DNA of 44,142 nt, from contig JABCZY010000004.1 of assembly GCA_013289395.1 (NCBI GenBank), positions 1 through 44,142 of the forward strand. Direction: 5' to 3'. The notes beneath the pieces were generated by a model. The model was given only the letters and a program-made list of their open reading frames with translations, was not told the origin of the DNA and searched no databases. The DNA comes from Bacteroidota bacterium (GTDB lineage: Bacteria > Bacteroidota > Bacteroidia > JABEUT01). Each line of letters starts with the position of its first letter. Position 1 is the first letter of the stretch. The translations under genes were made by a program, and so were the position numbers. Positions 39,069 to 44,142 of this stretch are shown piece by piece.

Positions 39069-39926
39069 ATGCTGGTTAAAACATATGGAAGTGCAGTTAG
39101 CGGAATAGATGCTACAACAATTACAGTCGAAGTAAATGTGAGTGCAGGGGTTAATTTCTTTTTAGTGGGATTGCCCGATAGCGCAGTTAAGGAAAGCCAG
39201 CAGCGGATAGATGCCGCTCTTAAAAATAATGGGTTCCGTTTGCCCGGTAAAATGATAACCGTAAATATGGCGCCGGCCGATATTCGTAAGGAAGGTTCTT
39301 CTTATGACCTAACTATAGCAATTGGCATACTAGCCGCTTCGGAACAAATAACAAGCGAGAAGGTTGGCGAATATGTAATTATGGGCGAACTGTCTCTTGA
39401 TGGAGGACTACAACCCATAAAAGGCGTATTGCCTATAGCCCTTAATGCCCGAAAAGAAGGATTTAAAGGGCTTATTCTGCCTGAGCAGAATGCTAAAGAG
39501 GCTGCAATTGTAGAAGGCCTGAATGTATATGGTATTAAGAATATTAAGGAAGCGATTGATTTTTTAAATGGCGATATAGAATTACAACCTGTTGTAGTTG
39601 ATGCTCTCGAAACATTTCATACTCAGTTATCATTGGCCGATGTAGATTTTGCAGATGTAAAAGGCCAGGAAAATATAAAACGGGCACTTGAAATTGCAGC
39701 TGCCGGCGGGCATAATGTAATACTGATCGGCCCTCCGGGTGCCGGCAAAACTATGTTAGCAAAACGCCTACCCACCATATTACCTCCACTTACATTAGAT
39801 GAAGCACTTGAAACCACAAAAATACATTCCGTTGCAGGTAAGGTAGGAAGTGGCAAAGGGCTTGTAGCATCGCGTCCGTTCCGTGCTCCGCACCATACTA
39901 TTTCAGATGTGGCTTTGTTGCAATGA
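39069..39926 (+). pseudogene. comM: comM (YifB / Mg-chelatase-like AAA ATPase), 5' fragment interrupted by an insertion
   Basis: VGLPD.AVKES, NMAPAD.RKEG, GELSLDG, GPPGAGKTMLA and RPFRAPHHTISDVAL, then LQ-stop instead of the conserved VGGG. 285 aa against about 500 aa for the family. Confidence 0.92.
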
Positions 39927-41612
39927 GGCATTTTTAGTATCAGGTCCTAATTCCCATATTCCCCCATCTTCTTTCTCAATACCAATAGGATGCCATCCAA
40001 GCCCTTTTTTGGGTATTTCATATATCCAAGGAGCAAGCTTTAATTCCAGGTTAAAAATGACCTTAACAATATGCGTGTTTGCCTTTTCGTCAAATCCAAT
40101 TCGAATCTGATGTATATAATTTTTCAATAATTCCCTTTTTTCTATATCGGTTTTACTGTCAAGATCAGAGTTTAAGTCTTCAAATACCTTTATATTGGGG
40201 AACTGAAGGTCCTTTTTGGATTGTAGGAATTTAAGCTCATTAATTGCTGATTGTATTTTACCTTCTAAATTTCCAATTTCTTCAATAAATTCATTATTTT
40301 TTTGAGTCAACTGCTCATCTGAAAATATTCTTTTAGTTGCAAGAGTAAGCAAGGTATTTTGTTGGTCTTTAATACTCGAAATCTGATTGTAATAGGTCTT
40401 GACATAATGTTCCAATTCTTTTATTTTCTTTTCATCTATTCCAGTCCCAAGCTCATTTATTGCCTTTACCAAAAGAATATTCGACTCCTTAAAATTTGTC
40501 CAAACGACCTCATTCAACCGATCAATATTAATACTCCTCATATTGCACTCTTTATGCCGTTTTGAGACACATGAATAAACCCGCATACTTCTTTTGGGTT
40601 TTATTATACCATACATACCTTTTCCGCATTTTTCACATCGAATAAAACCCTTGAGCATATAAAAATGGACTTTATTGTTCCTTCCTGCAAGAATACTGTT
40701 ATTCTTAAGGTTTTTTTGAACAGCTTCCCATAGAGACACTTCAATCATCGGTGTCACAGGTAATATTAGACCCTTATATCGCCTATGCCCTTTATAAATT
40801 GGATTTTTTAAAATACTCAAGATGGTATTAGGTCTCCAAATAATATCTTCTTGATTAACGTGTCGAACTTCACCGGTTAGTCTGTCTTTTAATTTTAAGC
40901 CATTTACAAGGCTTTTCCTGCCTCGTGTCGGAACTCCTTCCTCATTTAGATTCTTGGCTATTGTTGCCGTACCAATGCCTTCTAAACTCATCTTGAAGAT
41001 TTTTATAATGATTAAAACTTCATCCGGGTGAAACTCTAATGGTCCGCTTTCAATTTTAATGATTTCGTCACCATCAAATATTTTTATAGATTGCCTACGA
41101 AATCCATAAGGGAGCATAACACCACCACTCCATTTGCCTTTTTTGGCTGATTGTTCCAAGGTTCGCACTACCCTCTCATTTTTCAACCTTATTTCATGCA
41201 TGCTCAATACATTACTTATACCAAGCATTAATTCATGTGTAGGATTATTTTTGATGTCATATATATTATGGGAATCATAAAATAATATGCCATACTTCTT
41301 AAATATGCCTTTAATATAAGCTCCAATTTTTTCATTTCTGGCTAACCTATCCCACTCAGTACAAAAAATATGCTTAACCACCCCTTTCTCGCATCCTTCC
41401 AATAGACCTTTAAATACTGGTCTATTGTCTAAATTATCAGCAGTAGCGCTTGTGCCGGTGTTTTCATCACCTTCTCTCTGAATAATGGGAATCAAGTTAT
41501 AAGTATTTCCAATTCTTAAACCTGTCTCTTCTTGTGCAGGTGGGCTATTATCTTTTTTAGCGCTTTTATCTCCAGAGACCCGAATATAAATATGCAATTC
41601 TTCCTTCTTCAT
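39903..41612 (-). CDS. Large serine recombinase (resolvase + recombinase + Zn-ribbon/coiled-coil)
   Basis: YIRVS catalytic Ser, RP, DRLAR, PYGF, ILKNPIYKG, CEKCG...YSC...C and a coiled coil. Confidence 0.95.
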   Translation of the reverse strand: MKKEELHIYIRVSGDKSAKKDNSPPAQEETGLRIGNTYNLIPIIQREGDENTGTSATADNLDNRPVFKGLLEGCEKGVVKHIFCTEWDRLARNEKIGAYIKGIFKKYGILFYDSHNIYDIKNNPTHELMLGISNVLSMHEIRLKNERVVRTLEQSAKKGKWSGGVMLPYGFRRQSIKIFDGDEIIKIESGPLEFHPDEVLIIIKIFKMSLEGIGTATIAKNLNEEGVPTRGRKSLVNGLKLKDRLTGEVRHVNQEDIIWRPNTILSILKNPIYKGHRRYKGLILPVTPMIEVSLWEAVQKNLKNNSILAGRNNKVHFYMLKGFIRCEKCGKGMYGIIKPKRSMRVYSCVSKRHKECNMRSINIDRLNEVVWTNFKESNILLVKAINELGTGIDEKKIKELEHYVKTYYNQISSIKDQQNTLLTLATKRIFSDEQLTQKNNEFIEEIGNLEGKIQSAINELKFLQSKKDLQFPNIKVFEDLNSDLDSKTDIEKRELLKNYIHQIRIGFDEKANTHIVKVIFNLELKLAPWIYEIPKKGLGWHPIGIEKEDGGIWELGPDTKNASLQQSHI

Positions 41613-41685
41613 GATTCCGTTACAGTTTCGTTATTTTAGCTATATCCTGATATAACCCAGTAAATTTCAATTTAAATTACCTCAA

Positions 41686-41712
41686 CAAAAAAGCCTATCA
41701 ATAAAGGCTTGT
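41686..41712 (-). terminator. Rho-independent terminator between the tyrosine integrase and serine recombinase genes
   Basis: Minus strand aagcct-ttattgat-aggctt followed by ttttgttg. Confidence 0.55.
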
Positions 41713-41788
41713 ATAGAATTATATACTGCCTTAAATTCTCTATAAGAATTATGGTCAAATGTTACTGAGCTCCATAATCGTTTGATAT

Positions 41789-41845
41789 ACTGGGTATTCC
41801 ATTTTATTCGTTATTATTTTCGTTAATTTCAACAGAATACCCAGT
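41789..41845. repeat. Perfect 11-bp inverted repeat with 35-bp spacer
   Basis: ACTGGGTATTC at 41789-41799 and GAATACCCAGT at 41835-41845. Confidence 0.75.
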
Positions 41846-41853
41846 TAAATTAA

Positions 41854-43005
41854 TTAGGCAGCTATATTTCCAATACCCACTATGTCCAATTCCGGAAGTG
41901 TATCGAACCTTACATCAAAGTAGTGTAATAAGGTTGCCTCCTTCAATTCACTCTCTAGGATTTCTCCATAATTTGTCATTCCTATGGTATTAGGAACGTG
42001 ACCAAGTGCTTTCTCCATAATCTCTACCCTCTTAGTATGGTTTAGTATTAGATTAGCAAAAGTTTTTCGGCAGCAGTGAGTAGTAATATGCTTGGGAATA
42101 CCAGCTGCTTTTACCCAGTTAAAGAGTGCCTTTCGGAATAAATGATATCCAATGATCTTGAATCCTGGGAAAATGAAATCATTATCATTACCACGCTTTC
42201 CCAATAATCTAACAACATCAGGACGTATGTAAATGTGTAACAATTTGCCGGTCTTAGACATACATTTATTTAGGACGTACTCATTATTACCCTTTTCAAG
42301 AATATGTTTCCATTGCAGGCTTTTCAGATCTGAAATTCTTAGCCCAGAAAAGACACCAAATATTACAGAAACCTTTATGAAATCATATTTGCAATAAGCA
42401 GCCCACATAGCTGATACATCTTCAGCACTTAATATCTCTTTCGACGCACATGGTATTTTTCTTATGGGTTTAACATCAAGATAATTGTGAATCAAACCAT
42501 ACTTCGTTGCCACATTTAATACATGGCTGATTTTAGTAAAATTACCATACGAAGTATTAATATGCCGACATTTCGCTATGAAGAATTCTTGCAAGTCATC
42601 AACAAAAAACTGGTCAATTCTATTAAATGGCAGCTCGTTTGTTCTCAAGCCTTTTGACTGCAAAAAGTCCTTAAGAAGATTTCTTGGGTATTTATATGTT
42701 TTTTTCGTATGTGCTTTTTTACCCATCTCTACTTTTTCATAAAGAGCAAGAAAATCCTTTCTCCATCCATCAGATAAATAGAAGTTTTCATTTACTTCAG
42801 TTTCCAATCTAATTCTCTCCATTTCAGCTCTTACCATGGCATCCTTATCATCCAGGCTTGTAGCTTTAAAATCTAATCGTCTAGTAAGTTCTGCGTTACG
42901 AATTCCTGTTGCTTTATCTTTGAATTCAATGTAAAGTGTATATCCGTCCTTTTTAGGTGTTAGGTCCACTCTTACTCGACCTTTATATTGTGTATTGTTT
43001 TCCAT
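41854..43005 (-). CDS. Tyrosine recombinase/integrase (Bacteroidota type)
   Basis: Arm-like N-terminus, SAM-like domain, then SGLRISD, KTGK, HCCRKTF, LGH and TNY, giving a full R-K-H-R-H-Y set. Confidence 0.9.
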   Translation of the reverse strand: MENNTQYKGRVRVDLTPKKDGYTLYIEFKDKATGIRNAELTRRLDFKATSLDDKDAMVRAEMERIRLETEVNENFYLSDGWRKDFLALYEKVEMGKKAHTKKTYKYPRNLLKDFLQSKGLRTNELPFNRIDQFFVDDLQEFFIAKCRHINTSYGNFTKISHVLNVATKYGLIHNYLDVKPIRKIPCASKEILSAEDVSAMWAAYCKYDFIKVSVIFGVFSGLRISDLKSLQWKHILEKGNNEYVLNKCMSKTGKLLHIYIRPDVVRLLGKRGNDNDFIFPGFKIIGYHLFRKALFNWVKAAGIPKHITTHCCRKTFANLILNHTKRVEIMEKALGHVPNTIGMTNYGEILESELKEATLLHYFDVRFDTLPELDIVGIGNIAA

Positions 43006-43042
43006 AATTGTTTGTTTTTTAATTTTTATTTATTTAAATTGG

Positions 43043-43486
43043 TTAAAAGGGGATGACTTCATTATTTGATGGCTTCAACACTTCGCATGATAGATATGCC
43101 CTGCGTACTTCATTAAGGGTAAAATCCTCCAAGCCAATAACCTTGCCCCATTCCTCACAATAAATATTAATGTGATAGTAACTCAGCTTATTCAGGGCAG
43201 GAAAAACATAGCTATCATTACTTAAACGATCACCTAGTTGTTGCCTGATAATTGGGCGTATAAAATGTCTAAACCTCTCACATGAAAGTTCTATTAAGAA
43301 GCTTATTAAATGTTTTCCATCTGGGGTATCAATAATGTTCGACCATTTCAGGTTCTGTATTTCTACTCTACGCAACCCAGTATTTGCTACTAATATCAAG
43401 GCTGGTTTTAACTCCGGTATTCTACATGGCATTGAAAGAAGATGCTTCAATTGGATGGTTGTCGGCATTGTTTTCTTTGTTTTCAT
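43043..43486 (-). CDS. Truncated tyrosine-recombinase catalytic-domain homolog (147 aa)
   Basis: NTGLRRVEIQNLKW..I, IRP, VFP and TLNEVRR; lacks the K, H, LGH and Tyr residues. Intact ORF with a TAGGTTTG box at 43510-43517. Confidence 0.7.
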   Translation of the reverse strand: MKTKKTMPTTIQLKHLLSMPCRIPELKPALILVANTGLRRVEIQNLKWSNIIDTPDGKHLISFLIELSCERFRHFIRPIIRQQLGDRLSNDSYVFPALNKLSYYHINIYCEEWGKVIGLEDFTLNEVRRAYLSCEVLKPSNNEVIPF

Positions 43487-43545
43487 AATGTTTGTTTTTT
43501 AATTTTTGACAAACCTATCGTGTATATCTCTTGTGGAGATGCGTA

Positions 43546-43573
43546 CAATGGAAGATCATTCAATCTTCCATTG
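43546..43573. repeat. 11-6-11 palindrome (candidate recombinase core site or operator)
   Basis: CAATGGAAGAT-cattca-ATCTTCCATTG, with no adjacent U tract. Confidence 0.75.
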
Positions 43574-43598
43574 CAAATACCTAAACTATTCTTCTTGA

Positions 43599-44142
43599 TT
43601 ATTTTGTCAGGTGACCCGATGGCATGGTAAACTCACTATACCATTGTGCACTTAAGGATTTATTTTTCCCCAATAAGTTATTTACAGCCCTTAGATACAT
43701 GTCTATTTTGCTGTTTTGGTCTAGAGTATCGTTGCCCTTAAAACAGTCACAAAAATTCTTAGCAATATACCCGGCAATACTCCAAATTTGTCCCTTAACA
43801 AATTTATGTGTTTGATTATTGTGAACTATCCATTCTTTCATTGTTCTATTAATAAATAGAAGCCAAGCAGTATCAGACATTTTTTTATTTCTTCTTTGCT
43901 TTTTAATAGTAAGCCGAACAGTGTACTTTAATAAATCATTAAATCCATTATACTTCCTATACTCGTCCTTAGTATCGGGATTGATATACTTTGTAGCCTC
44001 GAAAAAATAACTCCTTTGTTTATGAAAATAAGTTAAAGCCACTGATAACCTATCTTCGATTACCTTGGTGTAATACAAGCCTTCTTCAAGCCTGATGTCA
44101 TGCAATAAACTGAAGCATTTGACAATTTTATGATTACTGACT
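43599..44142 (-). CDS. Hypothetical protein, 5' end beyond the window
   Basis: The frame stays open from the TTG at 44105 to the window edge; no recognisable motif. Confidence 0.6.
   Translation of the reverse strand, partial: VSNHKIVKCFSLLHDIRLEEGLYYTKVIEDRLSVALTYFHKQRSYFFEATKYINPDTKDEYRKYNGFNDLLKYTVRLTIKKQRRNKKMSDTAWLLFINRTMKEWIVHNNQTHKFVKGQIWSIAGYIAKNFCDCFKGNDTLDQNSKIDMYLRAVNNLLGKNKSLSAQWYSEFTMPSGHLTK

Follow-up and report, generated by a model that had tools for sequence, protein, structure and literature searches.

A large serine recombinase (LSR) whose reading frame leaves an integrated element and takes its stop codon from the interrupted host gene raises a double question: which protein does the gene encode when the element is free, and does the difference serve a function? 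The locus considered here lies in the window, i.e. the whole stretch of DNA analysed, which is the entire contig C4 (44,142 bp) of a MAG that is 52% complete, comprises 112 contigs and has a G+C content of 39%. The interrupted gene is comM. Its 5′ part occupies positions 39069..39905 of the forward strand and covers residues 1-279 of a 511-aa ComM, up to the base before the crossover, as given by the ORF list, Pfam and the join with a second contig, C80. The comM reading frame itself (39069..39926, +) encodes 285 aa with the C-terminal end ...HHTISDVALLQ, in which Pfam recognizes ChlI and the first 91 of the 207 Mg_chelatase positions. According to the ORF list, the last part of this truncated frame (39908..39926, +) is derived from the element and includes the TGA stop at 39924-39926.

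The recombinase gene lies on the opposite strand. In its integrated (attL) form it extends over 39903..41612 (−) and encodes 569 aa (ORF list, Pfam, protein search). The protein ends in ...LQQSHI, and its last four codons are the exact in-register antisense of the comM codons D-V-A-L (39906-39917). Its TGA stop (39903..39905, −) is supplied by the host as the complement of the comM serine codon TCA; attR carries AGC at this place, hence GCT (Ala) in the attP form. A preliminary description had noted this antisense crossing in codon register, the reverse-complementary relation of QSHI to the D-V-A-L codons and the double exchange of stop codons, by which the LSR ends on a host serine codon and comM on a TGA of the element; the ORF list and the sequence agree with it in every detail.

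All recognized domains of the LSR precede this end. The catalytic domain belongs to PF00239 (Resolvase, residues 8-161, E 1.3e-17) and is followed by PF07508 (Recombinase, 196-305, E 5.9e-15) and PF13408 (Zn_ribbon_recom, 319-373, E 1.1e-10). Residues R11, S13, R64, R89 and R92 are invariant across an alignment of 14 sequences, and the zinc ribbon contains four conserved cysteines (C326, C329, C348 and C356). LSRs have a long coiled-coil within the zinc-ribbon domain; in an AlphaFold2 model of the homologue P0061, i.e. of the homologue's protein and not of the window's, helices are predicted at 356-462 with pLDDT values mostly of 80-92. The enzyme is the single LSR of the MAG and matched solely these three serine-recombinase families in Pfam, PF00589 being confined to neighbouring ORFs. 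These neighbours are a 383-aa tyrosine recombinase ORF with Phage_integrase and SAM-like domains (41854-43005, −; Pfam), at 240 bp from the start of the LSR gene, and a 147-aa tyrosine-recombinase fragment (43043-43486, −; ORF list, Pfam). One element end thus carries recombinases of both classes, serine and tyrosine (tyrosine ORFs at 41854-43486, −), and the tyrosine recombinase ORFs could be a nested second element. A 180-aa ORF (43599-44141, −) follows before the left end of the element, delimited by ORFs and Pfam as 39908..44142, runs off the contig.

The other end of the element is found on contig C80 (5,665 bp), which contains the sole Mg_chelatase_C match of the MAG and in which foreign DNA precedes the comM 3′ half. 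The two contigs have in common a 12-bp stretch, GATGTGGCTTTG (39906..39917), which is identical in attL and attR, has one exact match each in the window and in C80 and encodes comM D-V-A-L and LSR Q-S-H-I on opposite strands. When the flanks of C4 and C80 are joined by script at this 12-mer, two uninterrupted genes are restored at once: a 511-aa comM and a 604-aa LSR, 35 residues longer than the integrated form. In the latter, a sense codon stands in place of the TGA and translation extends by 35 codons into the element's right end (L001:2170-2274, +), 2.6 kb of which, including these tail codons, are present on C80. Two more metagenome contigs contain this junction of right end and comM 3′ half at 99.6% identity, with the 108-nt tail region unchanged. 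According to its protein cluster record, the identical LSR is present on a contig of 84.8 kb. The restored comM, the common 12-mer and the symmetry of the attP arms make it most likely that the ends on C4 and C80 belong to one element. In the free form, two co-oriented ORFs would follow the LSR (L144:630-2765, +, right end on C80), one of 158 aa with a hydrophobic N-terminus and one that exceeds 545 aa, has a high content of Thr, Ser, Asn and Gly and is cut off by the contig end; Pfam assigned no family to either of them or to the 180-aa ORF of the left end.

Searches for the free form of this particular element returned integrated forms. Its own MAG holds each end once and no attP junction, and metagenome contigs scanned with a 30-mer of the right end gave two matches, both attR forms and no attP. 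Contigs of four sequencing runs showed neither a loose end at 39906-39917 nor an attB or attP form, at a cover so thin that it is uninformative on excision; run X2, a possible source run, spans the attL stretch and a 151-nt contig of run X7 bridges attL at 39892-40042. A terminator scan after the free-form LSR stop of the window's element gave 0 sites.

The position of the crossover is best approached by comparison. Both junctions were obtained for seven related elements (L004, L008, L009, L011, L012, L017 and L019), which gives eight pairs with that of the window. The core common to attL and attR varies from 12 bp in the window down to GA alone in L008 (range 2-12 bp), and the one dinucleotide that attL and attR have in common in 8/8 pairs is GA, with which the comM Asp codon begins. 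Arms of 24 nt were also scored for dyad symmetry around each candidate centre at shifts from −8 to +8. In all eight rebuilt attP sites the symmetry peaks at GA, with 13-17 of 24 arm matches vs 2-13 at the 16 other shifts; summed over the eight sites, there are 116 matches at shift 0 vs 31-58 elsewhere, and in the window's attP 13/24 vs at most 9. Such a short attP, with an imperfect dyad about a 2-bp crossover and little identity to attB beyond the core, is an att site of the LSR type. On these comparisons, the crossover most likely lies at 39906..39907, GA on the comM strand and TC on the LSR strand. The preliminary description had placed the junction at about 39917/39918, which holds as the right edge of the 12 bp common to attP and attB; as a crossover this point was rejected, the symmetry centre being about 11 bp further left. 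The host origin of the LSR stop is independent of this placement since attR reads differently at 39903-39905. With arm lengths inferred from the dyad, attL would extend over 39882..39931 and comprise a 24-bp host B arm, GA and a 24-bp P′ arm of the element (39908..39931, −), which, according to the att site alignment and the arm comparison, serves at once as the final ~8 sense codons of the recombinase gene.

It had been proposed from the window that attP lies inside the recombinase gene and that the excised form may encode a different C-terminus. Reconstruction from both junctions supports both points: the LSR frame reads through the rebuilt attP in 8/8 elements as well as in one natural free form, the viral contig L086, and the window's enzyme would have 604 aa in the rebuilt form vs 569 aa in the integrated one, i.e. 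a frame 35 codons longer, with the same pattern in the seven other elements.

The arrangement recurs among relatives. The protein search gave 35 relatives, the closest at 52% identity, and the locus searches gave 77 genome and 49 viral loci (126 loci); eleven of the nearest LSR loci that bear an organism name are from Bacteroidota. The restored comM matches 25 of the 126 loci by tblastn, and in 21 of these 25 the gene is broken at comM residues 269-288, the break lying elsewhere in four (L027, L089, L097 and L109). The 21 loci comprise eight in which the LSR 3′ end faces the antisense comM 5′ half, as in the window (type A), two in which the LSR 3′ end is followed by the comM 3′ half (type D), ten with comM beside the LSR start and one (L032) with comM 4.8 kb from the LSR. 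A comparison of the C-termini, which the preliminary description had suggested, gives a consistent picture: the LSR frame crosses the junction and reads into comM in 7/8 type A and 2/2 type D loci. The exception, L012, has an LSR frame that ends 327 bp early, about 110 codons before the crossover, and is open again over the last 104 codons before it. This gene (L012:5986-7893, from an uncultured Bacteroidales MAG) is interrupted by comparison with its close relative L008, which reads through in a 654-codon frame; a mutation or an error of assembly would account for it.

After the crossover, the integrated frames contain 0 (window), 1, 1, 3, 3, 14, 20 and 28 host-encoded codons. Seen against these relatives, the immediate stop in the window is a matter of chance, other elements running through 1 to 28 host codons first, and the borrowed stop is the shortest case of a general read-through. 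That the LSR frame reaches and crosses the site is, by the same comparison, not a matter of chance, given its recurrence in types A and D. An extreme case is found in Salegentibacter tibetensis (L016:5953-8403, +), where the LSR frame continues through the complete comM 3′ half (232 residues) as an in-frame fusion with 816 open codons; its rebuilt free form would stop 17-18 codons past the crossover. Among 162 database LSRs of at least 450 aa, 11 have C-terminal peptides that correspond to comM at this site translated out of frame; one of these matches (P0098) looks spurious. The type A layout requires at least four changes on the LSR tree and therefore does not define one clade. The opposite layout is seen in ten comM-targeting loci (L006, L007, L014, L022, L025, L033, L015, L030, L036 and L085), in which comM lies within ~50-250 bp of the LSR start and attP upstream of the gene; in these, integration would alter the promoter side rather than the C-terminus.

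A further question is whether the tail gained in the free form is a real coding sequence. In the eight rebuilt attP sites, the LSR frame remains open past the crossover for 35, 36, 30, 40, 30, 27, 34 and 33 codons. With the natural form L086 included, it is the longest of the three frames in 9/9 attP forms (27-40 codons), the other 18 frames closing after 0-25 codons with a median of 7.5. Relative to the crossover, the LSR frame is 0, 1 or 2 depending on the element. A chance model with a stop-codon probability of 0.083 per codon predicts 27-35 open codons in 10% to 5% of cases, and between 73 and 579 of 5000 shuffles per sequence reach the observed tail length. For the window's own tail, which has no close relative, 309 of 5000 shuffles reach 35 open codons, and the support for its being coding comes from its open frame and from analogy with relatives. 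In closely related pairs the tails can be compared site by site. Between L008 and L012, synonymous differences per site amount to 0.48 vs 0.23 for non-synonymous ones, and between L011 and L017 to 0.91 vs 0.30, an AGT/TCC serine switch included (30 codons per pair). L009 enters the crossover in another frame than L011 and L017, and a 1-nt indel ~27 nt downstream restores the common tail frame.

Natural long forms seem to exist as well. In L086, a P′-arm-like box, TC, a P-arm-like box and 34-35 further codons all belong to one LSR ORF; no comM is present within 5.7 kb after this LSR, which falls with the window's LSR in the starred six-row clade of the tree, and its TAA stop is followed by what by eye is a GC-rich hairpin with a T-run. 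The database protein P0061 (599 aa) matches in residues 555-585 the attR-end tails of L011 and L017, with modest pairwise E values of 5e-4 each, and appears to be a natural long form. Taken together, these comparisons show the tail in relatives to be a real coding sequence under purifying selection.

The tails of different lineages align poorly with each other in MAFFT, and tail fragments entered as separate rows were spread by MAFFT across the N-terminus. A short-query BLAST of the nine tails against the 178 collected proteins gave no significant match, one mid-protein hit (E 0.027) being taken as spurious. Residues 519-599 of P0061 have pLDDT values below 50 in AlphaFold2 with a 34-row alignment, so no fold or contact can be deduced for the tail. 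Judged by the usual characteristic ending of the ssrA tag, none of the nine tail ends is ssrA-like by eye; other degrons are possible. The reading frame of the ~16 codons that overlie the attP arms varies with the lineage, the outer CC.CC-type box of the P′ arm giving Pro-Pro in some and Phe-Pro-His in another, and this arm-encoded stretch looks like a linker dictated by the DNA site. In a neighbouring LSR clade (L013, L020, L021, L023, L024, L028, L029, L031 and L034), in which no comM was found in the flanks examined, the proteins end in a strongly conserved motif, hydrophobic-x-Tyr/Leu-x-Phe-Asp, directly before the stop. Extreme C-termini can therefore be functional in the LSR superfamily.

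The state of comM in related organisms informs on the dynamics of insertion. The gene is intact, with an identical PHHTISDVALVGGG site, in 7/7 same-genus loci examined, so that the rebuilt attB agrees with natural empty sites. In another MAG of the same genus, G011, comM is broken at the same GA, and another contig (1,953 bp) carries an intact site. The empty sites in same-genus relatives and the presence of both states in G011 point to a mobile or recent insertion. In G011 (L153:723-1992 and L154), only ~430 bp of foreign DNA come after the GA of the broken comM; this stretch bears a 145-aa ORF, which also crosses the junction into a host-derived stop, and beyond it lies an ORF whose product seems to resemble the C-terminal part of DnaK. 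The insertion looks like a remnant or a polymorphic insertion. Genome G008 contains an intact comM whose site reads differently, HHTASSVSLVGGG (L136), as well as a contig with an LSR joined to a comM 3′ half of another sequence (L010); two strains were probably binned together. In the literature, comM is a known hotspot for other elements (PMC11472951) and DNA competence genes are enriched among LSR targets (PMC10083194).

These data can be assembled into a mechanism. An integrative element would have been inserted by its own LSR into comM at codons ...HHTIS|DVAL.... Its attP would be a site of ~50 bp, with two imperfectly symmetric 24-bp arms around GA/TC, embedded in the 3′ part of the LSR frame. 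In the free circle, the LSR gene would read through both arms and ~27 more codons to produce a 604-aa enzyme, the form that integrates. Integration would cut the gene at the crossover, leaving its last 35 codons at the far end of the element, beside the comM 3′ half; the gene body would then run into antisense comM, meet the host TGA at once and encode the 569-aa protein, the form available to the integrated element. Excision would rejoin gene and tail. The comparisons support the view that truncation of the LSR, with loss of a conserved 35-residue tail, is the main effect of integration, rather than the borrowed stop codon.

The sequence evidence thus favours a model in which the LSR gene spans attP and integration removes a selected tail that serves a function specific to the free form, and we regard this model as probable. 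A free-form-specific function would follow from the contrast between a tail that selection maintains and host-encoded replacements that are arbitrary (0-28 residues in type A relatives or, in L016, a ComM fusion of 232 residues). Such a function could concern the integrative reaction, or how much enzyme is present and how stable it is; a built-in switch of activity, stability or directionality, as suggested in the preliminary description, may be the result. Excision must still be possible with the tail-less LSR, presumably aided by a directionality factor: without cycling through the free form, tails separated from their gene would be under no selection and would decay. A narrower version is conceivable but has clearly less than an even chance of being right: the tail may be a direction-specific module, the long form being tuned for attP x attB recombination and the shortened form being inefficient in, or excluded from, any more integration or untimely excision as long as a directionality factor is absent, with the arm codons as a mere linker.

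The most serious alternative is that the overlap is harmless: the att site sits at the end of a compact element, the ORF happens to cover it, both isoforms behave alike and no switch exists. This reading accounts for the arm-encoded residues, which occur in three frames across lineages and are thus tolerated as an arbitrary linker, and it is compatible with the lack of predicted structure over the last 80 residues of P0061, with replacement tails of 0 to 28 host residues alongside otherwise intact LSR frames and with the scatter of the layout over at least four places of the tree among relatives with attP upstream of the gene. It fits poorly with what lies beyond the arm. Under neutrality, the read-through should end after ~7 codons, like the other frames, whereas the tail is open in 9/9 cases over a narrow range, and both the deficit of non-synonymous differences in the two close pairs and the frame-restoring indel argue for constraint. 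Harmless overlap is accordingly judged unlikely, though it deserves to be kept in mind.

Far less probable is a suicidal integrase of the SSV type, in which integration would inactivate the LSR and lock the element in unless another copy helps. The design is formally that of the SSV integrases, which are split by integration (PMC7253208). Fusion to 232 ComM residues in L016 could well disable the enzyme, and the LSR of L012 is interrupted. The loss is nevertheless limited to 27-40 of ~600 residues, after all Pfam domains, and purifying selection on tails at the far end of the element requires a regular return to the free form. The coexistence of occupied and empty comM in one same-genus MAG, together with the intact gene in all seven same-genus relatives examined, also indicates that the insertion is not fixed. 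As for an artefact of pairing, i.e. ends from different elements or from a tandem array, with an extension open by chance and an LSR that truly ends at the host stop or has lost its own, the fragmentation of the MAG, the absence of a spanning contig among those examined and the shuffles that reach the window's tail length leave it some room, but it is hardly credible in view of the perfect comM obtained on joining, the arm symmetry about GA, the same right end beside the same comM 3′ half in two more contigs, the single LSR of the MAG and eight other attP forms that behave alike.

A free form that differs from the integrated one by its recombinase has precedents among tyrosine recombinases. 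The integrase gene of myxophage Mx8 extends across attP, and intP is altered to intX on integration, as described in one study (PMC4383910), which confirms the precedent named in the preliminary description. The likeness lies in an attP situated within the integrase reading frame and in a C-terminus altered by integration; the difference is that Mx8 Int is a tyrosine recombinase, whereas the enzyme of the comM element is an LSR with a 2-bp crossover and dyad-symmetric arms, and is known here from sequence. The prophage form of the Mx8 integrase is reportedly less active. Archaeal integrases of the SSV type also have the recombination site inside the integrase ORF, which is split by integration (PMC7253208). 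They too are tyrosine recombinases, but they are divided into two inactive pseudogenes, whereas the window's LSR loses only the last 35 of 604 codons, after all recognized domains.

A related principle governs a different gene in mycobacteriophages BPs and Brujita, where immunity depends on integration and attP lies within the repressor gene (PMC6109161). There too, attP is near the 3′ end of a gene and integration gives a shortened protein with other properties; the gene concerned is a repressor, however, the integrase is of the tyrosine type and the lost tail is an ssrA-like degradation tag, whereas here the gene is the recombinase itself and its tail is, by eye, not ssrA-like. With the canonical LSRs, such as those of Listeria A118, phiC31, Bxb1 and SprA of SPbeta, the window's enzyme has in common a three-domain architecture, attP arms that flank a central dinucleotide and a coding gene as target. 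LSRs recombine attP and attB by breaking both strands in concert, with a stagger of 2 nt. In the canonical systems attP adjoins the integrase gene and is not known to lie inside it, and a single polypeptide acts in both directions with the help of a directionality factor; the window's LSR differs by an attP inside the gene. In a search of open-access papers and bioRxiv, no serine integrase came to light whose reading frame is described as containing attP. The comM element is, on its sequence, a case of the Mx8/SSV design carried out by a serine integrase and thus a variant of a design known from tyrosine integrases; its LSR resembles that group in layout but is not a member, as it matches no family of tyrosine chemistry.

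In textbooks, serine integrases exemplify direction control that relies on a separate cofactor, and they are widely mined for genome engineering. If a whole clade has attP in its own gene, the enzyme that integrates and the enzyme of the integrated state are different proteins. LSRs mined from integrated copies would lack their natural tail and carry host residues instead, which could affect the activity of mined enzymes. With ~16 of its codons prescribed by the very site to which its product binds, the LSR gene would be under an unusual double constraint. Should the tail prove dispensable, the finding would still provide a useful annotation rule for the comM-targeting LSR family. If, on the other hand, the tail is a direction-specific module, directionality or a lysogeny-like stability would be written into gene topology and not left to a cofactor alone. 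Were this also general, a widespread and hitherto undescribed layer of control would exist in serine integrases, and many database LSRs would be truncated isoforms of the integrated state.
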